The notes beneath the pieces were generated by a model. It was not told the DNA's origin. It ran no database searches and worked only from the letters and a program-made list of their open reading frames with translations. From Rickettsia typhi (GTDB taxonomy: Bacteria; Pseudomonadota; Alphaproteobacteria; Rickettsiales; Deianiraeaceae), in NCBI GenBank assembly GCA_945861605.1, contig CAMAVG010000001.1, forward strand, positions 1-37,169: a stretch of DNA of 37,169 bases, read 5' to 3'. The position numbers were made by a program, and so were the translations under genes. Positions within the stretch are counted from its first letter, which is position 1, and each line of letters starts with the position of its first letter. This document shows, in pieces, positions 13,603 through 28,213 of the stretch.

Positions 13603-16600
13603 TTACGATGAAAATGTTGTTCTGCGATAGCTTGTGTACTTGTTGATTTGTGAGAGATCGTTGGTGATTTCACAGGCTTCGTCTGTTTTTTTGATTTTGC
13701 TGGAAATGTATAATTTCATGACTTCCTTCAATCCTTTGTTGATGTCAAGGGCGGGAATGGCAAATTTGGCGATTATCTCAATTGTGGATTTGTTTTGTTC
13801 GCCAATTGTGAGGTTTCCGTAGCATACGCCGGCGGAATATGCGGTTTTGATGGTGCAGTCTTCGATTGCGAATGTTTTGTCGTTGCCGTTGAGGGAGAAA
13901 ATGAAGTTTGCTTTGGTTTTTGTGTCCTGTTCGAATGCGATTTTGAGGTAGTCGGTATCAAGTGCGGAAAGGTTTTTGTGGGCTTTTAAAAGATGTTGGG
14001 AGATGAAATCAAGGTTTAATTTTGAAAAATATGCTTCCTGAACGACGAATTTGGTTGTAAGTTTGAGTGTATTGAGGAATTCGGTGTATGTTGTTCCGCT
14101 GAATGAGACTGAGCCGCCGCCGTAAATCGCACCGCCGATGTCGGTTTGAAATGGGAGGATTGTTTTGAATTCCTCGATTGGGGCGTTGATTATCGTTGTT
14201 TGGAGGTTGAAAACTGGGATGCTGCGGCGGAGGTCGATTGTGCCGGAAAGCTTGCCTGAAAGGGGCTTTTCTGCGTTTGTGACGATTGAAGAAAATTGTG
14301 TTTCGGGGATTGTAAGAACCCCTTGCTTGAGGATGCCGAGAAGTTCGATTTTTTCGAATGGTTTGCCGAGGATCTGCGATTTTATGAGGGTGAAGTCGAT
14401 GTTTCCGTCAATTTTTTCGAAAGATGGGTATGATATGGTGTTTTTGTCGAATATGTTGCGAATGATGTTGTAGAATTTTTGCATGCTTTCAACATTTTGG
14501 ACGATTGTTTTGGAGTGAATGGTTGGTATGTTTTGTTGGATGTTGATAATCGTGGAGTTGGTGAGGGTGAAATCGGTAGTGTTGATATCAACGCTGTAGG
14601 TGATGGTGTCTTTTTGTGTGTCTTTTGTGATTGTGCCTTGGGTGATGGTGGTATCTTTGAATTTGGAGTTGATAATATTGAGGACTTTGCCGGTGTTTTG
14701 TGCGTTTTCGTTTATGACGCTCTGGAAGATTGTCATGCCTTGTGGTGTGGATATTCCGTCGATTTTGAGGTTGTTGAGGTCGGTGTTTGATATCGTGATG
14801 TTGCGAAATGATGATGGTGTGGTGTTTTCGGAGAAATGCTCCGTGAATTGTGTGGAACCTTGGAGGGAGAGGGTGTCTTGAATTTCGATTGAGACAGTGT
14901 TGATGGTTGTGGAGGGGGCTTTGTGAACGATTGAAAGGTTGACTGTGCTGGTTTCGTCTGTGATTGTTTTTGATATTTCGAAATCTGTGGCAAATTGTAC
15001 GATTTTGCTTACGATGTTTTTGTAATTGCCGTTGCCGGAGATCGAAATGTTGAGAATGCTCGTTGGATTGGATTGAATGTTGTTGATTGCACCGCTTGCT
15101 TCGATTTGAAGGTTTTCGCCGGCTTGAAGTTGGAGGGTGTGGAGGTCGATATTTTCTTTTGTGATGGTGAGGTTGGATTCGAGGTTTTTGAATAATGGTT
15201 CGTTTTGTGATGAAATATTTTTTGAGACGATTTTGATTTCAAGGGGCTTGGCTGGGTTTATGATGGAGAAAATGTTGAGGGCATGTGATTTGTTGATATT
15301 TTTTTTATTTTCCTCGGGTTTTTTGGTTTTTGTAATTGGGGGTGGTGTTTTGGTTTCGCCTATGATTTTTGATATAACTTCCGTTATGGAGATTGTTTCG
15401 AAGTTGACGGTTGCTTGGTAGGAATTTGGGGTTGTTTTGAGGGTGAAGAGTCCGATTGAATTGAGTGCGTTGATTTTCCCCTTGGAGACGCTGAATTCGT
15501 GATTGAGTGATGAGTGTTCGAAATCGAGTTGAATGGTGAGTTGTGGGAGGTTTTTGAGATATTGGGTGATTTTTGGTTTTCCGCCAAATATTGTGGTGAA
15601 TTCTTCGAGGTCGCTTATGATGAGTTCGATGTTGCCTTTGGTTTGGAAGTCTTTGGAGGCGGTGCCAAATGTTTTTTGTGTGCCGTTGATTGTGAAGTTG
15701 AATGATGGGGATTTGATTGTGGCTTCCAGTAAATGGTTGCTTTTGGTGTGGGAGTATTTGATTGTGATTGGTTTGGAGTTGGTGAGAATAGTCCCTGTGA
15801 TTGTGGATTTCTGTGGTGTATTGTGGATTTCGAGATGATCGATGGAGATGTTATCGATGATTTTGCCTTGTAGGTCTTCGACCGTGAGGGTGGTATCGGT
15901 GATTGTGATGTTTTCGAGCATTGGGGAGAACTCTTGATTGATGAGTTCGGTGAGTGTGTTTAGAATGTTGATATCATTTGTGCTTGTGATTTTGATGGTG
16001 GAATCGGATATTGTGAATGTTGCGTTTTTAAGATTGTGTTGGATGTTTGAGAACAACTTGGAGGAAAGTGATGTCGTTCCGTTGATTTCCATTGTGGTGG
16101 AATCGTTGAGTGCGATTTGCATTTGGGATTTGTGGAATATGAGTTTCTCGCGAATGGTGTATTGCATTTGTACGCCCTGTGTTTTTAGGATTTTGATTGT
16201 GCCGTTTTGAAATGTCGGAATGGATTTTGTGGTTATTCCAACTTGGCTTGCATAACCCCAAAGGGCTGAAATGAGGGCGAGTATTGCGATGAGAATGATT
16301 TTGGTTTTGTGGAAATCGATGTGATTTCCAAAAGTTTTTTTATTTTTTTTGATTGGTTTGTCAATTTTTGGTTTTTTGTGAGATATTTCCGGTTGTTCTT
16401 TGGGGCGAATCATTTGGGCGATTTTGCTACTTGTTGGTGTTTCTATGGGTGTTTCTTCTTCAGGCTCCTCTTCAAGGTTGAAGTCGTAGTCTTCGTCCGC
16501 AGCTTCCTCTTCGTTTTGTGGTTCCTCTTCAAGGTTGAAATCGTAGTCTGCATCATCAGATTCCTCTTCGTTTTGTGGTTCATCTTCAAGGTTGAAGTCG

Positions 16601-17208
16601 TAGTCTTCGTCTGCAACTTCGTCGTTTTCCTCATTTTGTTGATTAAACGATGTGGCGGATTGCATTTTGATTTCATCCATGCCGTCTAATTCGTCGAGTT
16701 CCTCCGCAAGGGTTTGTCCTGTTTCCGCTTCGGGGAGTGAATCGAAATCGTAGTCGTCTTCTGCAATTGCTTCCTCGCTTTCTTGCGTTTCCGCTTCGGG
16801 GAGTGAATCGAAATCGTAGTCGTCTTCTGTCACAATATTTTCCTCGCTTTCTTCAGTTTCCGCTTCGGGGAGTGAATCGAAATCGTAGTCTTCCTCTGTC
16901 ACAATGTTTTCCTCGTTTTCTTGCGTTTCCGCTTCGGGGAGTGAATCGAAATCGTAGTCTTCAACAGGTTCTTCTTCTTGGGTATCCTCGTCTTCGCCGT
17001 GGTGGAGGTGGAAGTCGTCAGTATCTGCGCCTTCGAGGTGTTCGGGATCGATTGGTTGATCGAAGTGAATGTCTAATTCAAAATCTTCTTCTGTATTTGG
17101 AGCAGGATTGGGCGCGATTCCCTTGCGGTTCGTGGAATTGTTGCTCACATTAAAAGAAAATTTTTTTTTTATTTTAGAAATCTTGTCTTTGGTTTTTGGA
17201 AAAATCAA
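13603..17208 (-). CDS. AsmA/TamB-like envelope protein with an acidic repeat-containing N-terminal extension
   Basis: 1201-aa ORF. About 297 aa of acidic repeats are followed by a single TM helix (KIILIAILALISALWGYA), about 880 aa of T/N/S/I-rich beta-prone sequence, and a C-terminal block (GGAIYGGGSVSFSGTTYTEFLNTLK...) resembling the AsmA C-terminal domain. The start is uncertain because the TTG at 17208 has no nearby in-frame ATG. Confidence 0.55.
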   Translation of the reverse strand: MIFPKTKDKISKIKKKFSFNVSNNSTNRKGIAPNPAPNTEEDFELDIHFDQPIDPEHLEGADTDDFHLHHGEDEDTQEEEPVEDYDFDSLPEAETQENEENIVTEEDYDFDSLPEAETEESEENIVTEDDYDFDSLPEAETQESEEAIAEDDYDFDSLPEAETGQTLAEELDELDGMDEIKMQSATSFNQQNEENDEVADEDYDFNLEDEPQNEEESDDADYDFNLEEEPQNEEEAADEDYDFNLEEEPEEETPIETPTSSKIAQMIRPKEQPEISHKKPKIDKPIKKNKKTFGNHIDFHKTKIILIAILALISALWGYASQVGITTKSIPTFQNGTIKILKTQGVQMQYTIREKLIFHKSQMQIALNDSTTMEINGTTSLSSKLFSNIQHNLKNATFTISDSTIKITSTNDINILNTLTELINQEFSPMLENITITDTTLTVEDLQGKIIDNISIDHLEIHNTPQKSTITGTILTNSKPITIKYSHTKSNHLLEATIKSPSFNFTINGTQKTFGTASKDFQTKGNIELIISDLEEFTTIFGGKPKITQYLKNLPQLTIQLDFEHSSLNHEFSVSKGKINALNSIGLFTLKTTPNSYQATVNFETISITEVISKIIGETKTPPPITKTKKPEENKKNINKSHALNIFSIINPAKPLEIKIVSKNISSQNEPLFKNLESNLTITKENIDLHTLQLQAGENLQIEASGAINNIQSNPTSILNISISGNGNYKNIVSKIVQFATDFEISKTITDETSTVNLSIVHKAPSTTINTVSIEIQDTLSLQGSTQFTEHFSENTTPSSFRNITISNTDLNNLKIDGISTPQGMTIFQSVINENAQNTGKVLNIINSKFKDTTITQGTITKDTQKDTITYSVDINTTDFTLTNSTIINIQQNIPTIHSKTIVQNVESMQKFYNIIRNIFDKNTISYPSFEKIDGNIDFTLIKSQILGKPFEKIELLGILKQGVLTIPETQFSSIVTNAEKPLSGKLSGTIDLRRSIPVFNLQTTIINAPIEEFKTILPFQTDIGGAIYGGGSVSFSGTTYTEFLNTLKLTTKFVVQEAYFSKLNLDFISQHLLKAHKNLSALDTDYLKIAFEQDTKTKANFIFSLNGNDKTFAIEDCTIKTAYSAGVCYGNLTIGEQNKSTIEIIAKFAIPALDINKGLKEVMKLYISSKIKKTDEACEITNDLSQINKYTSYRRTTFSS
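16468..16605 (-). repeat. in-frame tandem repeat, 3 copies, period 57 bp, encoding DYDFNLE(E/D)EPQNEEE
   Basis: The core (c/a)tcttcaaggttga(a/g)(a/g)tcgtagtc recurs at 16468, 16525 and 16582. Confidence 0.95.
16721..16959 (-). repeat. in-frame tandem repeat, 4 copies, period 66-69 bp, encoding DYDFDSLPEAET plus an acidic linker
   Basis: The 35-nt core gtttccgcttcggggagtgaatcgaaatcgtagtc recurs at 16721, 16787, 16856 and 16925. Confidence 0.95.
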
Positions 17209-19065: not shown

Positions 19066-20721
19066 TCAGATTTTATCGCGTCTTTTTCGGTGAGATGTTA
19101 TCACAAAACGGTGGGATTCGTCCCGCAGAACCTCGATGAAATACAACGCTTGTTTGCTTGAAAGCTTGAATCCATCAGGGTTTTGCCGTGTGAAAAAAGT
19201 CTCGTTTCCAGCATTGCGGTTTCGCCCTTTTGCGATTGAAACCACTGGAATTGTTATGCCGATCGCGTCCAAAACCCTTGTGACCGCATGGAATTGACCA
19301 AGTCCGCCATCGATTACAAGCAAATCCGGAAAATTGCCGATTGTGGAATCACTTGCGAAACGACGCGTCATAACTTCCGCCATCATTGCGTAGTCGTCGC
19401 CTCCTTTTGAATATTTTGCGTTAAATTTTCGATATTGTGACTTTTCAAACCCTTTTTGCGAGGCAACAACGAACGCACCCGTGAAAAATGCACCGGAAAT
19501 GTGGCTGTTATCGTAAATTTCGACGCGATTTGGCGTGAAATCAAGTGCAAATGCCTCGCGAATGTGCTCCATTCCAACCGCAAATTCGTTATTTTGTTTC
19601 GCGTCAATGCCAATTTGAAATTGAAGATTCGTCAGGACGAAATCCAGCAAAACCCTCGCTTCACCCTGCTTGGGATTGGAAATTTCCGCTGTGAGGGCAA
19701 AAAGTTCCTTGAAGAGAATCTTGAGGTTTTGCGTGGAAACTTCGTGGCTCGTGAAAATTTTTTTTGGCGGCGGATTTTCATTTGAATAGTATTCCAAAAT
19801 GAACGCCTCGAGGATTTCGGAAATTGTGCCGTCGTGTTTGTGGATTTCAAAAAGATTTCCACCCAGAGCATAGCCGTTTCGAATTGCAAAAACCTCAACT
19901 TTCGTAAGGCTTTCGCCGATTGCAACAACGTCAATGTTCTCAAATTTCGTGAAATTGACATCGTTTGAGGACGATTTTAGGTTTTCGATCGAAAGAATTT
20001 GGTTTTTGAGGAGTTCGGCCTCCACAAAATTTTCTTTTTGTGCAAGAATCGTGATTTTGTTTTTAATATTTTTGTAGATTTCGGAATCCGCGCCTTGTAA
20101 AAACTTTTTTGCGTTTTCGATGGATTTTTCGTAGTCCGCCTTGGAAATCATGCCGGCACAAGGGCCCGAGCAGGTTTTGATCTGGAATTCCATGCAAGGT
20201 TTGCCGCAAGATTGGTGGATGTTGAACTTGGAATCCTTGCATGAGCGAATTTTGAAAACCTTGTTCACGAATGTCGTGATGTATTTTATGGTGTCGTTCG
20301 TGGAAAATTTACTGCCTTGAATGTAGCCGAACGGTCCAAAAAGGGAGGCTTTTCGCTCAAACTTCCCGCGATATCGCACAATTGCGGGGAATTTGTGGTT
20401 GGAAAGCTTGATATATTGGCGAGATTTGTCGTCTTTGAGGAGAATATTGTACTTCGGTTGGTGTTTTTTGATGAGAGAAGCCTCTAAAATCAGTGCGTCT
20501 TTTTCCGTTGGCGTTATTTCAAATTCAATTGAGGCGACATTTTCAACGAGTGTGCGTGTTTTTGGGGAAAGTTCGCTGATTTTTGTGTAGGATTGCACCC
20601 GTTTTTGCAGGTTTTTCGCTTTGCCAATGTAAATTAGTGTGGCGTTGAGGTCTCGCATTTTGTACACCCCCGAAAGATTTGGCATTTCGGGGAGGGCGTT
20701 TTTAAGGATTTCAATGCTCAC
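19066..20721 (-). CDS. uvrC: excinuclease ABC subunit C, lacking the C-terminal (HhH)2 domain
   Basis: GIY-YIG N-terminus (GVYKMRDLNATLIYIGKAKNLQKRVQSY), a Cys-rich region, a UVR-like region and the endonuclease V-like domain ending LRDESHRFVITSHRKRRDKI-stop. Confidence 0.9.
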   Translation of the reverse strand: MSIEILKNALPEMPNLSGVYKMRDLNATLIYIGKAKNLQKRVQSYTKISELSPKTRTLVENVASIEFEITPTEKDALILEASLIKKHQPKYNILLKDDKSRQYIKLSNHKFPAIVRYRGKFERKASLFGPFGYIQGSKFSTNDTIKYITTFVNKVFKIRSCKDSKFNIHQSCGKPCMEFQIKTCSGPCAGMISKADYEKSIENAKKFLQGADSEIYKNIKNKITILAQKENFVEAELLKNQILSIENLKSSSNDVNFTKFENIDVVAIGESLTKVEVFAIRNGYALGGNLFEIHKHDGTISEILEAFILEYYSNENPPPKKIFTSHEVSTQNLKILFKELFALTAEISNPKQGEARVLLDFVLTNLQFQIGIDAKQNNEFAVGMEHIREAFALDFTPNRVEIYDNSHISGAFFTGAFVVASQKGFEKSQYRKFNAKYSKGGDDYAMMAEVMTRRFASDSTIGNFPDLLVIDGGLGQFHAVTRVLDAIGITIPVVSIAKGRNRNAGNETFFTRQNPDGFKLSSKQALYFIEVLRDESHRFVITSHRKRRDKI

Positions 20722-21203
20722 GCAACTTTGAGAGTCTTGATGATGCTGTCCGGAGTGTATTCAAGGACGGAATTTTCAAAATGCACTGAAATGCCAATGG
20801 TATTTTGGGTTTTGAAGATGAAATCCGCGGGTTGTGGGATTTTTTGGCTCAAGAATTGTGTGATTTCGTCAATTGAGAGTTCCTGTTCTTTGGCGAGGGA
20901 GATCACGACTACGGTGCGTTTGTGTTTTTCTTCGTATTCTTTTTGAAAAGCCTTCGTGATGGCGTTCATACTGCCGAGCATTTTCAGTTGGTTTATGTGT
21001 TTCAAGATGATTTGCATTTCGTTGGAAATTCCAAAAACCTTCATTTGATCAATTGCGATGAGGTCTTTTATCGTTTGTGAGAAATTTAATATTCCTGAAA
21101 AACCATAGAATTCCTTTAAAATCGCCAAGTGGAGTGATTCTGGGACGGCAATTATGCAAGTTCTGACGATTTTCTTGATCACTTCGTTCGCGCGTTCTTT
21201 CAT
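20718..21203 (-). CDS. hypothetical protein, possibly a divergent F-type ATPase delta (OSCP) subunit
   Basis: 161-aa ORF translationally packed between metK and uvrC. The C-terminal half (KRTVVVISLAKEQELSIDEITQFLSQKI...FKTQNTIGISVHFENSVLEYTPDSIIKTLK) follows the OSCP pattern V.V.SA..L....i...l....v.l....D..liGG..v..g..v.D.S....L..L. This comes from pattern memory only. Confidence 0.35.
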   Translation of the reverse strand: MKERANEVIKKIVRTCIIAVPESLHLAILKEFYGFSGILNFSQTIKDLIAIDQMKVFGISNEMQIILKHINQLKMLGSMNAITKAFQKEYEEKHKRTVVVISLAKEQELSIDEITQFLSQKIPQPADFIFKTQNTIGISVHFENSVLEYTPDSIIKTLKVA

Positions 21204-22417: not shown

Positions 22418-22885
22418 TTATTGTTCGTAGTCAAGCTTGATGTGGTAATTGTGGCGTGTTTGCGTGCAGTGTTCGTCGTAAATTTTCGGGCGGAAAATCT
22501 TGATTCCCTTGTGGACGAGTCCGCCTAATGACCACGACCAATACTTATCCATTAAGCACGCTTTGTTTTCGCCGTCGTAATAAACCGCTGCCATTTTGGA
22601 ATTGACATTAAATTCCACGGGTTTGTAGCCACTCATTTCAACAATCACTTGGGTGTTTTCCCCTTTTGGAACTTGCAGGTCTAACGGAGTTTGCCCCTGA
22701 ATGCTCACAATTTTGCCTTGGTAGGAATATTTTTGCGAATATTGGTAAATTTTATCGTAGATTTCCCCCGAATGAACAACCAAAACCGTTGCCCCGCTTG
22801 GTGCGGAGGTTATATATGTTCCACTTGTGCGTGGTGCTGTTAGGGAGCAAGCGGAAAGAATTAGGAGTAGGATTATGTGTTTCAT
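22418..22885 (-). CDS. lipoprotein with a PEGA-like domain
   Basis: Lipobox LILSAC after a short hydrophobic N-terminus. SAPSGATVLV ... GQTPLDLQVPKGENTQVIVEMSGYKPVEFNV matches the PEGA-domain pattern. Confidence 0.6.
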   Translation of the reverse strand: MKHIILLLILSACSLTAPRTSGTYITSAPSGATVLVVHSGEIYDKIYQYSQKYSYQGKIVSIQGQTPLDLQVPKGENTQVIVEMSGYKPVEFNVNSKMAAVYYDGENKACLMDKYWSWSLGGLVHKGIKIFRPKIYDEHCTQTRHNYHIKLDYEQ

Positions 22886-23583
22886 TTGGTGTTAAAAAAT
22901 TCATCTTGAAATGGTAGCATATCATAGGTCTCTTTATGTTTATACTTCTTCAAATCTTCCTGTTTTCTTCTAACTTCTTTCACTTCATCGGCTTTTTGCT
23001 TCAACCATGTATATTTTTCACTGTGTGTATCTTTGTATTTTTCATATAACTTTTCAATTCGCTTGAAATTTGTTAATCGTGTTAAGAATTCAATATATAA
23101 ATATCCATCACCATCTTTCTTATATTCACCTTGAATCATCTTCACAATTTTCTCTTCACACAGTGGATCAATAATAACTCGTGGGTAAAGAGCCTTCGAT
23201 TTTTCCAAATTATAAGCACGGTTAATAGCAGGACCAATAAATTGCGAACTCTTGTGGAATACCTTTCCATAAGTGATTGCCCCACGGGAGAGGAGGTTTT
23301 TCATTAACAATGCAGTTTGTATGCTAATTACCTTATCTACTATAACCTCAATATACTCACTACTTATGACAAATGTATCGGAAAATTGTGCAACTTCATT
23401 AAAATCTATATCATCAAATAACAAATATTGATTTGGATCTTGCTTTTTTTGCAAAATCTTATCAAATAAAGACAAAACCTTCCTCGCAAACTCCTCGGAT
23501 TTTTTTTCATCATTAACATAAGCCTCAAACCCCAGAATATCCAAGAACAGAACATATTTTTCGGTGTAAATACTACTCATCAT
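22882..23583 (-). CDS. minimal class-III nucleotidyl-cyclase-like (palm/CHD fold) protein with a K/E-rich helical tail
   Basis: 233 aa. VLFLDILGFE (D15), FSDTFVIS (D69), RGAITYG and GPAINRAYNLE line up with CHD landmarks ilFaDIvGFT, GDaymavf, R.GihtG and GdtVNlAsRlE. The gene is markedly AT-rich compared with its neighbours. It overlaps prfB by 11 nt and the lipoprotein gene by 4 nt. Confidence 0.55.
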   Translation of the reverse strand: MMSSIYTEKYVLFLDILGFEAYVNDEKKSEEFARKVLSLFDKILQKKQDPNQYLLFDDIDFNEVAQFSDTFVISSEYIEVIVDKVISIQTALLMKNLLSRGAITYGKVFHKSSQFIGPAINRAYNLEKSKALYPRVIIDPLCEEKIVKMIQGEYKKDGDGYLYIEFLTRLTNFKRIEKLYEKYKDTHSEKYTWLKQKADEVKEVRRKQEDLKKYKHKETYDMLPFQDEFFNTK

Positions 23584-24644
23584 TCCCCTTCTTTGAAAAA
23601 GTTATCATTTTGAAGATGAAATCGTCAATTCCGCCGTCTAAAACCTTTTGCGTGTTCATTTCTTCGTGTGAAGTTCGCGTATCTTTCACTAACTTATAAG
23701 GGTGTAAAACATAGTTTCGAATTTGATTTCCCCACGAAACATCATCTTTTTCGACGGAATCTCGCTTTGCTTGGCGTTTGCGTTCTTCAAGTTCGTAAAG
23801 TTTGGACATCAACATTTTCATGGCGGTTTCTCGGTTTTGAAGTTGAGACCTTTGGTTTTGACAAGCCGCGACAACTCCAGTTGGAATATGCGTCATTCGA
23901 ACGGCGGAATCTGTGACATTCACATGTTGCCCGCCTGCACCGGATGAACGGTAGGTATCGGTTCGAATATCGCTTGGGTTAATGTTAATCGTGATTGTTT
24001 CGTCAACCAGTGGAGTCACAAGCACCGAAGCAAACGAGGTTTGGCGTTTGTTTTGAGCATTAAACGGCGAAACTCTTACCAAGCGATGCACACCCGTTTC
24101 GTATTTCAACATTCCGTAGGCGTTCTCGCCTTCAATTGTAATAATCGATTGCTTAATTCCAGCTTCTTCCCCGTGAAGACGATTCACGATTTCCATTTTG
24201 AAATTCTTTTCCTCCGCCCAGCGAATGTACATTCTCTCCAACATTTCTGCCCAATCTTGGCTTTCGGTGCCGCCTGCTCCTGAATTTATTTCCAAAACAA
24301 CGCCAAGTTTATCGGCTTCGTCCGAAAACATTTCCGCCATTTCCATAAATTTCATTTTCTCGATGAGCTTTGGAAGTTCTTTGAAAATTTCGTTTCGAAT
24401 TTCGTCGTCTGCTATTTCGATTATTTCAGCGTAGCCTTCTATCGTGGAAGAAACTAATTCAAATTCAGCAATGTAGCGTTCAAGCGATGCCTTTTCCTTC
24501 AAAACCTTGATTTCATAATTTCCATCAAGAACTTGGTCTTCAAGAACTTTCAGACGCGATTTTTTGGAATCCAAGTTAAAGAAATTCCCTCAACTTTTGG
24601 AGGGAATTAAGGGTTTGATTCAATTCAATTGGAAGATCTTGCAT
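23573..24644 (-). CDS. prfB: peptide chain release factor 2, with a programmed +1 frameshift
   Basis: SPF tripeptide (RVSPFNAQ) and GGQ (SGAGGQHVNVTDSAVR). ORF0 runs from the ATG at 24644, encodes MQDLPIELNQTLNSLQKLREFL and stops at TAA (24578..24576). After the +1 shift, NLDSKKSRLKVLED... continues to 23573. The junction parallels E. coli LRGYL/DYDAKKERLEEV. Confidence 0.9.
24575..24590 (-). promoter_or_regulatory. RF2 +1 frameshift cassette (SD-like AGGGA, then CTT TAA C)
   Basis: The minus strand reads AGGGAATTT CTT TAA C. It has the same architecture as the E. coli cassette AGGGGGTAT CTT TGA C, but with a UAA stop. Confidence 0.8.
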
Positions 24645-24709: not shown

Positions 24710-25003
24710 TTACTCAACGGCGATGGAAATCTCAATTCTGTCGCCAGCTGAAACTTCGCATTTCTCGCGGATTTCCTTTTTTATGGGAATGATATAGGTC
24801 TCATCCTTGCGAAACATTGATGTCTTCCACGATTTTCCGCCAATTGTTGCGGTGATTTTCACAGAACCCCAGCCCAAATGCACGCAAGCTTTCTTGATTA
24901 CATCCGCGTAATATTTTGGAACGGAAATAAAATGCCACGAAGAGGTTTTTATTCCATCTTTTGGAACCCAAAGCCACATTTCTCCCGTGAATCTGTAAAT
25001 CAT
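24710..25003 (-). CDS. DUF1905-family small protein
   Basis: 97 aa. WHFISVP....A..IK......GWGSVKITATIGGKSWKTSMFRKDETYIIPIKKEIREKCEVSAGDRIEISI fits the DUF1905 (YdeI N-terminal-like) pattern. Its start overlaps the gpmI stop by 4 nt. Confidence 0.6.
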   Translation of the reverse strand: MIYRFTGEMWLWVPKDGIKTSSWHFISVPKYYADVIKKACVHLGWGSVKITATIGGKSWKTSMFRKDETYIIPIKKEIREKCEVSAGDRIEISIAVE

Positions 25004-26580: not shown

Positions 26581-27216
26581 ATGTCGCAATACAAAATTCT
26601 AACATTTTCATTGCTTGATTCACACAAACACGGGAATATTTTAGAAAGACTTTTAAAATTCCGATACCAAGGCTTCGTTGTTGAGGAAAAATACGATATT
26701 CCAACATATAACGACACAGAATTTGACCAATACGACAACCCATTCGCCAAATATATCACCATTATGCAAGGCGATGAAATCGTCGCATGTTCAAGAATTA
26801 ACAGGACGGATATTCCTTATATGGCAAAAGATTGCTGGAGCCACCTAATTCCAAGCAATTTCCTTCCAAGCGATTCAAACTTTTATGAATGGACAAGGCA
26901 GTATGTTAGTTCCAAACTTATAATGGTTGAGAGGATGAAGATGGCTCGAATAATTTCCGCAGTAACATATTTCACCCTTATGGAATCAAATGCTGGCGGG
27001 GTTTGTTATGTTACGCATGCTTCGTTGCTTCATACGGCGGAAAAGCTTGGAATGAATCCACACTCTGTTGCAAGACTTAATCTTCCAGACTTTCCCAATC
27101 TTCATTTTGTGCATGTGAATGTGAATAATGACGACGCACAAAATGTTGCGAAGAACATCGTAGAAATGACAGGATTTGATATTATTCGGCATTTTCCGTC
27201 TGTGGATCTGGGTTGA
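26581..27216 (+). CDS. LuxI-family autoinducer (acyl-homoserine-lactone) synthase-like acyltransferase
   Basis: 211 aa. FRYQGFVVE..., TEFDQYD (the E-x-D-x-x-D acidic cluster), IVACSRINRTDIPYM (cf. G..RL.PT..P.ML) and FYEWTRQYV (cf. WE.SRF.V) reproduce the conserved N-terminal LuxI signature. Confidence 0.7.
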   Translation: MSQYKILTFSLLDSHKHGNILERLLKFRYQGFVVEEKYDIPTYNDTEFDQYDNPFAKYITIMQGDEIVACSRINRTDIPYMAKDCWSHLIPSNFLPSDSNFYEWTRQYVSSKLIMVERMKMARIISAVTYFTLMESNAGGVCYVTHASLLHTAEKLGMNPHSVARLNLPDFPNLHFVHVNVNNDDAQNVAKNIVEMTGFDIIRHFPSVDLG

Positions 27217-28213
27217 TTTTAATTGGGTTTTTCAGGAATTTTACTTCGGAGACGAACCTTATGCCACCTGCGCCGCGTTTAAGTTGAACGATGATATCCA
27301 CAACTTGCGTGATATAACTTCGCACTTCGTCCGGTTCCATTCCAAGACCAGCCTGCATAACCATCAACTTAAGTTGCTCGACTGCCATGGTTGGGGAATC
27401 GGCATGGAGGGTGGAAATTGAGCCGGGGTGTCCTGTGTTGATTGCTCGAAGGAATGAAAAGGCTTCTTTACCGCGAATTTCCCCCACGATTATTCTGTCT
27501 GGTCGTAGACGAAGACAGGCTTCGATGAGATCCTGCGTTGAAACATCACTTCGCCCTTGTCCGCCTTTTGAAGAGACCAAATGAAGCTTATTTGGGTGCA
27601 GATTCAACACGACTTCTCTTGCGTCCTCTACGGTTATAAGCCTTTCTTCTCTTGGAATTTCTTGAAGTAGGGCGTTTGTGAATGTTGTTTTACCAGTGGA
27701 TGTTCCTCCGCTGATAATCAGGTTTTTTTTGAACCGAACGCAACCGCGAAGGAAATCTTTTATGCGGTTTTGTTCAAGGAGGGCTTGAAGAATGTAGTCG
27801 TTTCTATCTTCTTGTTTGGATATCGCCGATTTGGTGAATGCTCCCATTTTTTCGTAATCTTCAAGGGTGTAGCTCGTCGTTGATGGTTTTCTGATTGAAA
27901 ATGCAACGGTTCCTTTTGGGCAAACGGGCGGAAGGACGACCTGAACACGACATCCGTTTGGAAGAGTTGCCGAAAGAAGTGGCTTTTCTTCGCTGACGAT
28001 TTGATCCGTTGATTGAGCAATAAGCTTTGCAAGACCATACAGGTGTTTGTATGTAAAAACGGGGAGTGAAACGGAATACATTTTGCCAAATTTTTCAACC
28101 CAGCCTTTTTCAGGTTCATTGATGGAAATCTCCGCAACGCCTTCTTGTGCAAGAATTTCCTCCAACGGTTGAAGATATGTGTTCAAAACCGTGAAATTGC
28201 TGATAGAATTCAT
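27182..28213 (-). CDS. virB11: type IV secretion ATPase VirB11/TrbB family
   Basis: 343 aa with a VirB11-like N-terminus (LQPLEEILAQEGVAEISINEPEKGWVEKFG), Walker A GGTSTGKTT, an Asp box/Walker B (RPDRIIVGEIRG) and a His box (NTGHPGSISTLHA). Confidence 0.85.
   Translation of the reverse strand: MNSISNFTVLNTYLQPLEEILAQEGVAEISINEPEKGWVEKFGKMYSVSLPVFTYKHLYGLAKLIAQSTDQIVSEEKPLLSATLPNGCRVQVVLPPVCPKGTVAFSIRKPSTTSYTLEDYEKMGAFTKSAISKQEDRNDYILQALLEQNRIKDFLRGCVRFKKNLIISGGTSTGKTTFTNALLQEIPREERLITVEDAREVVLNLHPNKLHLVSSKGGQGRSDVSTQDLIEACLRLRPDRIIVGEIRGKEAFSFLRAINTGHPGSISTLHADSPTMAVEQLKLMVMQAGLGMEPDEVRSYITQVVDIIVQLKRGAGGIRFVSEVKFLKNPIKINPDPQTENAE

Follow-up and report, generated by a model that had tools for sequence, protein, structure and literature searches.

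Class III nucleotide cyclases share a cyclase-homology domain (CHD; PF00211), found in Rv1625c, Rv1900c, CyaC and the C1 and C2 units of mammalian adenylyl cyclases. Among bacterial immune proteins, the Pycsar cyclase PycC, a small cyclase-fold protein of defence islands, was reportedly described by Tal and colleagues in 2021, and CapRel SJ46, said to be a fused toxin-antitoxin sensor with a RelA/SpoT fold, is attributed to Zhang and colleagues in 2022. Here we analyse a reverse-strand gene for a small protein with a predicted fold of the cyclase type, lying between prfB and a lipoprotein gene on a Rickettsiales contig (CAMAVG010000001.1); the window is the whole stretch of that contig under analysis, 37,169 nt. 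Judged by homology, the one characterised relative of its family is the growth-arresting prophage toxin PanT. The PanA-PanT pair of Burkholderia prophage phi52237 was validated as a type II toxin-antitoxin system in which PanA binds and neutralises PanT, the prophage protein gp8; this 'putative nucleotide cyclase' (HHpred 97%) is toxic in E. coli and inhibits mainly transcription and then translation, with induction of RelA-dependent ppGpp and no depletion of ATP (Kurata et al. 2022, PMC8832971).

The phi52237 homologue in our searches is exactly this gp8 (YP_293707.1), whose gene lies in the int-Q accessory region, with that of a DUF4065 protein 3 nt upstream. Profile-profile comparison of the window family with PanT (hhalign) gives 99.4% and E 2.3e-21 over 194 columns, and pairwise BLASTP gives E 1e-15 at approximately 25% identity. 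The homology extends over the full cyclase-fold domain, in which all family-invariant motifs align (DILGF, FSD, RGxIxxG, H, GPA, AYxxE, PRVI, DGxxYI), and both are small single-domain proteins on mobile or accessory DNA. They differ in that PanT has an N-terminal extension of ~45 residues and lacks both the KYxWLK helix and the C-terminal tail of the window protein, and in that PanT has its DUF4065/Panacea antitoxin immediately upstream, whereas the window gene has no PanA and is chromosomal, fixed in a prfB operon and hypervariable. With tblastn and phmmer, the only locus to give a PanA match below E=1 was the PanA locus (L093) itself; the window and 91 related loci gave none. In this Rickettsiales lineage the gene is a permanent member of a prfB-CHD-lipoprotein operon, with a core under purifying selection and hypervariable surface cassettes that recombine, and its product has an apparently intact two-metal (D15/D69) and Arg (R100) site for a nucleoside triphosphate (NTP). 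We give a little better than an even chance to the reading that it is a toxin-like conflict enzyme that regulates itself and carries a diversifying recognition surface.

An AlphaFold2 model based on an alignment of 40 homologues (predicted local distance difference test 82, predicted template-modelling score 0.77) shows the order of elements of a cyclase-homology domain over residues ~7-165, followed by two helices. Searched against the PDB with Foldseek, the model has 77 matches at E<=1e-3 (best E 9e-6, template-modelling score on the target up to 0.68), and the top 50 are all catalytic domains of class III adenylyl or guanylyl cyclases. Matches among the viral models of BFVD are weak (best E 1e-3), the best being guanylate-cyclase domains; GGDEF and reverse-transcriptase palms are far weaker there, with GGDEF proteins appearing only at E>0.1. 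GGDEF and Cas10 palms are also absent from the top 50 PDB structural matches, Pfam GGDEF does not match, and the metal-binding hairpin reads Q-F-S-D-T, as against the GG(D/E)EF of GGDEF and mCpol (Cas10-palm) synthases. Queried with the single sequence, Pfam, NCBIfam, PADLOC and the PDB sequences yielded no meaningful match. PF00211 did not match the window protein at E<=10 and reached only three of the 40 homologues, below threshold (best E 0.024); none of the 40 has a Pfam domain, and the only names given to them at source are 'hypothetical protein' and one evidently erroneous NusG label. PADLOC gave no match to PycC or to any other cyclase, and one spurious Cas9 match (E 0.02). Against PDB sequences the family profile found cyclases at sub-significant values (E 0.4-1.4) confined to beta1/alpha1, and with a broader 92-sequence profile even these were lost. 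Taken together, the model and its structural matches support a predicted class III CHD (palm) fold. An earlier note on this DNA, made from its letters alone, had proposed such a palm for the first ~130 residues with a K/E-rich tail of ~100 residues behind it. Its fold agrees with the model, in which the domain reaches further; the tail description holds for residues 201-233 only, since residues 184-200 form a conserved helix with K190 and W193.

Thirteen residues are invariant across 92 diverse homologues (D15, F67, S68, D69, R100, G101, H110, G117, E127, P134, R135, D159, K190), so that the motifs are not due to chance. To place them, the family profile was aligned with a profile of nine canonical class III cyclases from annotated plasmids, chosen as reference since a 46-residue Rv1625c segment used as seed had given two fragments only; this single comparison covers 136 columns at a modest E of 0.0015. 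In it D15 and D69 fall on the two metal Asp positions, R100 on the beta4 Arg and E127 on the alpha4 Glu, while N121 occupies the position of the transition-state Asn and N125 that of the transition-state Arg. The base-specifying Asp and Lys positions correspond, at that same modest E of 0.0015, to P118 and A65, columns that are near-invariant Pro and S/T, respectively, in the family; neither the Lys/Asp pair used for ATP nor the Glu/Cys pair used for GTP is thus present. The earlier note's assignment of D15 and D69 as metal ligands and of an Asn in place of the Arg stands in this alignment; its statement that the transition-state Asn is kept holds for the window protein and fails for the family, in which column 121 is N, T, V or I and column 125 is variable. 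Given the variation at 121 and 125 and the residues at P118 and A65, the family appears to retain a two-metal NTP site without the residues responsible in class III enzymes for cyclisation and for selection of the base. The resemblance to canonical domains thus comprises the predicted fold and secondary-structure order, the two metal Asp, the beta4 Arg and the alpha4 Glu; the differences are the missing PF00211 match, the lack of a conserved Asn/Arg or Lys/Asp pair, a beta4-beta5 arm that is 7 residues shorter, and four further invariant residues that are the family's own (H110, R135, D159, K190). In a metagenomic representative of 475 residues (P0041) two family domains are fused in tandem, the first degenerate (D69->N, R100->C, K107 lost) and the C-terminal one intact. 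This layout resembles the C1/C2 pseudo-heterodimeric cyclases and hints, by analogy, that the working unit may be a dimer.

The gene diverges far faster than its surroundings. Relative to loci L001 and L005, neighbouring proteins of the window are 84-99% identical (prfB 97-98%, argB 98-99%, uvrC 94-95%, metK 90%), and some drop to 66-76% in the more diverged L003; the cyclase-fold protein is only 48-63% identical to the versions in its relatives. This divergence is concentrated in three internal cassettes (V1 to V3) and an optional tail, which alternate with four conserved blocks (C1 to C4; Table 1, in which block identities are mean pairwise values among close alleles). Block C3 holds R100, G101, G106, H110, G117, E127, P134 and R135. 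Inside V3 the hairpin D157-G-D159-G-x-x-Y163 is conserved, and in V2 conservation is confined to the i/i+3/i+4 buried positions 85, 88, 89, 92, 93 and 97 of alpha3. The tail occurs in 5 of the 22 close alleles, and that of the window is nearly identical to that of the L005 allele. Cassette types are reassorted among alleles: in the order V1-V2-V3-tail, P0004 is B-A-B-B, P0006 is B-A-C-A, P0009 is A-B-C-A and P0008 is A-B-A-A.

The same pattern appears in the DNA, where identity is 85-95% in the flanks, 77-87% in the core and approximately 40-55% in the cassettes, the collapse occurring inside the cassettes only. Between L001 and L005, V3 is 97-100% identical and V1 approximately 40%. By the Nei-Gojobori method, flank dS ranges from 0.33 to 0.65 among three close genomes and up to 1.6 relative to L003, with dN/dS (omega) of 0.03-0.18; the corresponding values for C3 are dS ~0.7 and omega ~0.1. 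In the cassettes dN is 0.6-1.2, equal to or above dS, values that are unreliable in these saturated and indel-rich blocks. Some cassettes moved between genomes after their flanks diverged, because dS is 0 for V3 between L001 and L005 and 0.07 for the tail between the window and L005, far below that of the flanks. The variation does not stem from faulty assembly, since identical alleles were recovered from different samples in assemblies made independently. Metagenome scans with single-protein patterns gave nothing and those with clade patterns only one locus that was already known, which limits the analysis at DNA level to the few alleles for which DNA was available. A tblastn search of the window found no silent donor cassettes or extra copies of the gene. 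A diversity-generating retroelement was considered as a source of the variation and rejected, as the cassettes differ by indels and replacement of whole segments; no sign of a reverse transcriptase was seen in the immediate neighbourhood, though no search was aimed at one.

Fast divergence and low guanine-plus-cytosine (GC) content in parts of the gene, together with the missing antitoxin, could also be read as the neutral drift of a former toxin left to decay once its antitoxin was lost. We regard this as highly improbable: all 22 close alleles are intact and retain all 13 family-invariant residues, omega in the core is ~0.1, buried helix positions are conserved inside the variable blocks, and identical cassettes are common to diverged genomes.

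The order prfB, cyclase-fold gene, lipoprotein gene (~155 residues) recurs in every close relative recovered. At L097 the gene keeps its slot between prfB and the lipoprotein gene despite rearranged surroundings, with tsf and a NUDIX gene upstream and tuf downstream; at L015, a more distant Rickettsiales locus whose prfB is 75% identical, the gene overlaps the prfB stop and is followed by a different gene. No empty prfB-lipoprotein site was found among the sampled relatives, and with the same slot occupied in every one of them the gene is not a recent insertion. GC content is 25-26% in V1 and V3 and 42% in C3; being confined to the cassettes, low GC is not the mark of a foreign gene, and in relatives whose genomes have 35-38% GC the gene has 34-37% and is compositionally unremarkable. 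A foreign insertion of the whole gene, as the earlier note had proposed, was therefore rejected on synteny, on core GC and on a core dS like that of the flanks.

Such permanence is one of the attractions of a housekeeping role, in which the protein would be a second-messenger cyclase making cyclic AMP, cyclic GMP or a related signal for normal physiology, with its receptor encoded elsewhere. It agrees with the presence of both metal Asp and the beta4 Arg on a cyclase fold, with fixation beside the essential prfB in every relative and with the purifying selection on the core (omega ~0.1). We consider this explanation unlikely, however: the transition-state Asn/Arg and base-specifying Lys/Asp are not conserved and PF00211 finds no match, three recombining hypervariable surface cassettes are not expected of a housekeeping enzyme, the sole tested relative is a toxin, and elsewhere the family is patchy, turning up in bacteriophage exclusion (BREX) and type I restriction-modification operons as well as in prophages and on plasmids.

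The family is large. An exhaustive profile search retrieved 13,677 clusters (at 50% identity) with E<=1e-3, of which 1,307 reached E<=1e-30, and nearly all are standalone proteins of ~260 residues. A search of 185,579 species-representative genomes gave 145 matched stretches with genes for relatives, spread over Bacteroidota, several proteobacterial classes, Spirochaetes, Firmicutes, Verrucomicrobia and others; those closest to the window gene come from freshwater Rickettsiales metagenome-assembled genomes. Phage profile phrog_23933 matches at E 5e-27 and phrog_21097 more weakly at E 4e-7, and homologues, always annotated as hypothetical, are carried by 84 plasmids and by six P2-like Burkholderia prophages. 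With thousands of members and a clear homology to PanT, the gene no longer fits the description of the earlier note, to which no known system explained it.

At about half of the loci the homologue has a close neighbour on the same strand. Neighbours include HsdS and HsdM, PglZ, mad5 and mad6 of MADS, PD-T4-6-like kinases, a HEPN AbiV protein, RhuM, ORF6N, an ABC-3C domain, MobA and ParB, and further AAA_15 and AAA_21 ATPases, a resolvase, a transposase, SMEK and a combination of M78 and PIN proteins. In a Nitrosomonas BREX operon (L047) the homologue is flanked by PglX and PglZ; in Akkermansia (L032) it separates HsdM from a PIN protein, in Treponema (L017) it separates HsdS from a KAP NTPase, and in Legionella (L034) it follows a MobA/TraI relaxase. 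Qualitatively, such contexts are those of a gene that travels alone as a passenger of defence islands, and recurring partner genes, which the earlier note suggested looking for, did not emerge. In the literature we found no description of a standalone cyclase-fold defence protein; DefensePredictor and a domain-centric screen mention as cyclases only DAC, cGAS and PycC. A separate arrangement was observed in two independent contigs (L010, 8804-11941; L011, 4577-7414), where genes for two large proteins without a Pfam domain (510 and 533 residues) come after that of a Bacteroidota-type homologue (P0024), all in the same orientation, with a pair of Peptidase_M78 and PIN/DUF4411 genes nearby; this arrangement may be a lineage-specific multi-gene module.

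Defence-island neighbourhoods of so many homologues, together with the fold, would suit the signal generator of a split pathway resembling Pycsar or CBASS (cyclic oligonucleotide-based antiphage signalling), which on infection makes a cyclic nucleotide for an effector encoded at an unlinked site. The window protein does resemble PycC in being a small cyclase-fold protein of a kind found in defence islands, and, as the earlier note observed, it is standalone with no recognisable receptor adjacent. The Pycsar-type signalling that the note associated with it is nonetheless improbable, since PADLOC detects neither PycC nor another cyclase, no transmembrane or TIR effector with a domain that binds cyclic nucleoside monophosphates (cNMPs) adjoins the gene, its neighbours being prfB and an exported PEGA lipoprotein, no effector-like neighbour recurs in 80 loci, and the homologue PanT is toxic alone in E. 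coli.

If these bacteria are symbionts, the protein might instead be an effector exported into a eukaryotic host, for example by a type IV system, its surface diversified by host immune pressure. The Rickettsiales lineage, the homologue in Legionella, the conserved catalytic core under a hypervariable surface, the charged C-terminal tail as an optional cassette and a secretion-type ATPase gene within the window are all compatible with this idea, which is nevertheless quite unlikely: the protein has no signal sequence, the tail is missing from 17 of 22 alleles, and most family members belong to free-living Bacteroidota and Proteobacteria, within restriction-modification or BREX operons and prophages.

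For the toxin-like conflict enzyme that we favour, the following mechanism can be proposed. The protein would be an NTP-using enzyme of the abortive-infection type whose coupling to prfB would give it low constitutive expression, and as no antitoxin gene is present it would keep itself inactive. The hypervariable surface formed by alpha2, alpha3 and the alpha5-beta7-beta8 region would be the interface for a fast-evolving trigger or inhibitor, which could be a protein of a phage, of a mobile element or of the host. Part of it is the groove between alpha2 and alpha3, to which G-alpha subunits bind in mammalian cyclases. Activation would yield a nucleotide product or modification, whether through cNMP synthesis, another nucleotidyl transfer or some other reaction, and lead to arrest of transcription and translation, as reported for PanT. 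CapRel SJ46 offers a parallel in that one polypeptide joins a conserved core, a toxic nucleotide enzyme, to a hypervariable region, whose role as recognition surface is assigned here by analogy only; it differs in its RelA/SpoT fold, unrelated to the cyclase palm, and no separate antitoxin-like domain is identified in the window protein, where variable segments are interspersed within the catalytic domain.

This proposal must be tempered by several points that weigh against it. Sequence identity to PanT is only ~25%, the dedicated antitoxin of PanT is missing here, and a toxin constitutively co-transcribed without an antitoxin needs self-inhibition, which we infer only. These uncultured Rickettsiales have, to our knowledge, no reported phage or trigger. 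Values of dN/dS in the variable blocks are unreliable through saturation and indels, all sampled relatives have the gene, a fixation not typical of defence genes, and the defence context elsewhere is qualitative only, no neighbour family recurring in more than 5 of 80 loci. A more specific reading, which we hold only tentatively, is that the protein is a self-contained immune or conflict sensor-effector on a cyclase fold, a single polypeptide of ~230 residues with direct recognition of invader (or host) proteins through its recombining cassettes, a growth-arresting nucleotide reaction and, in a reduced genome, translational coupling to the essential prfB. The reaction would in that case be other than classical cNMP chemistry, because the Asn/Arg and base-specifying residues are missing and H110, R135, D159 and K190 are invariant.

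Coordinates of the gene, its blocks and the neighbouring features are collected in Table 1. The open reading frame (ORF), its motifs (VLFLDILGFE, FSDTFVIS, RGAITYG, GPAINRAYNLE), its low GC relative to prfB and its overlaps of 11 nt with the prfB stop and 4 nt with the start of the downstream lipoprotein ORF are all as the earlier note had described them. Relatives all start at the equivalent of the second ATG, ATGAGTAGT (MSS), which is probably the true start and would give 232 residues and an 8-nt overlap with prfB. GC content of the gene is 31.8% (30% at third codon positions), compared with 41.9% for prfB, 40-44% for other neighbours and 41.0% for the whole window. A Shine-Dalgarno-like sequence within the final codons of prfB and the overlap of stop and start suggest translational coupling of the gene to prfB, and no promoter-like or terminator-like sites were predicted between prfB, the cyclase-fold gene and the gene downstream. 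The lipoprotein is 67-89% identical in relatives (omega 0.12-0.18) and is not hypervariable.

Table 1. Positions of the cyclase-fold gene, its conserved (C) and variable (V) blocks and neighbouring features in the window
Feature	Coordinates	Strand	Residues	Identity	Remarks
Cyclase-fold gene, ORF	22882..23583	-	1-233
Second ATG, probable start	23580	-
Stop codon of cyclase-fold gene	22882..22884	-
C1	23485..23583	-	1-33	61%	beta1 and D-I-L-G-F motif; D15 codon 23539-23541
V1 cassette	23389..23484	-	34-65	20%	C-terminal half of alpha2 and loop; GC 25%
C2	23359..23388	-	66-75	81%	Q-F-S-D-T beta2-beta3 hairpin; D69 codon 23377-23379
V2 cassette	23293..23358	-	76-97	24%	alpha3
C3	23161..23292	-	98-141	85%	beta4-beta5-alpha4-beta6 catalytic core
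V3 cassette	23035..23160	-	142-183	24%	alpha5, surroundings of beta7-beta8, following helix
C4	22984..23034	-	184-200	61%	K-Y-x-W-L-K helix; invariant K190, near-invariant W193
Optional K/E-rich tail cassette	22885..22983	-	201-233	16%
Shine-Dalgarno-like GAAGGGG	23585..23591	-
prfB (release factor 2)	23573..24644	-			upstream operon partner in all relatives
prfB stop codon (TAG)	23573..23575	-
prfB +1 frameshift site	24575..24581	-
Lipoprotein gene	22418..22885	-	155		downstream operon partner; signal peptide, lipobox LSAC, PEGA domain
DUF1905 gene	24710..25003	-	97		between gpmI and prfB
Gene in metK/uvrC interval	20718..21203	-	161		overlaps uvrC by 4 nt
LuxI-type autoinducer synthase gene	26581..27216	+			PF00765, E 4e-9
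T2SSE-family secretion ATPase gene	27182..28213	-
Long ORF	13603..17208	-	1201		57- and 69-nt tandem repeats in 5' part

Several other features of the window were recorded. The programmed +1 frameshift site of prfB, GAGGGAATTT CTT TAA C, has a UAA stop in place of the canonical UGA, and this version is found in all close relatives (L001, L003, L005, L014, L097); the more distant L015 has the canonical CTT TGA C. Where the window has the DUF1905 gene, relatives have ilvC, encoding ketol-acid reductoisomerase, and/or a MORN-repeat gene, so the stretch just upstream of prfB differs between strains. No Pfam model matches the gene between metK and uvrC, which keeps its position in all relatives at 66-88% identity. 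The adjoining genes for a LuxI-type synthase and a T2SSE-family ATPase are paired in L001 and L005 as well. The long ORF, also without a Pfam match, lies in a region of extreme strand composition, with a GC skew of approximately +0.5 and an AT skew of approximately -0.4 (plus strand, 3 kb).

What is already known of such proteins is a PanT-type cyclase-fold toxin, from one experiment. New here are the scale of an unnamed standalone clade with no antitoxin and a non-canonical active site, and, in Rickettsiales, fixation in a prfB operon combined with hypervariability of the cassette type. A very large unnamed family spread over many phyla is thereby tied to one experimentally toxic protein, which makes it a prime target in the search for a new nucleotide-based toxic or signalling reaction on a cyclase fold. 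The Rickettsiales locus is a natural experiment in which the core evolves like a housekeeping gene and surface cassettes are shuffled between strains whose neighbouring proteins are 90-99% identical; the shuffling marks a face of the protein under conflict-type selection, and the natural alleles are ready-made swaps with which to look for its partner or trigger. The locus also shows a toxin-like gene as a stable part of an operon with an essential gene, in a small genome.

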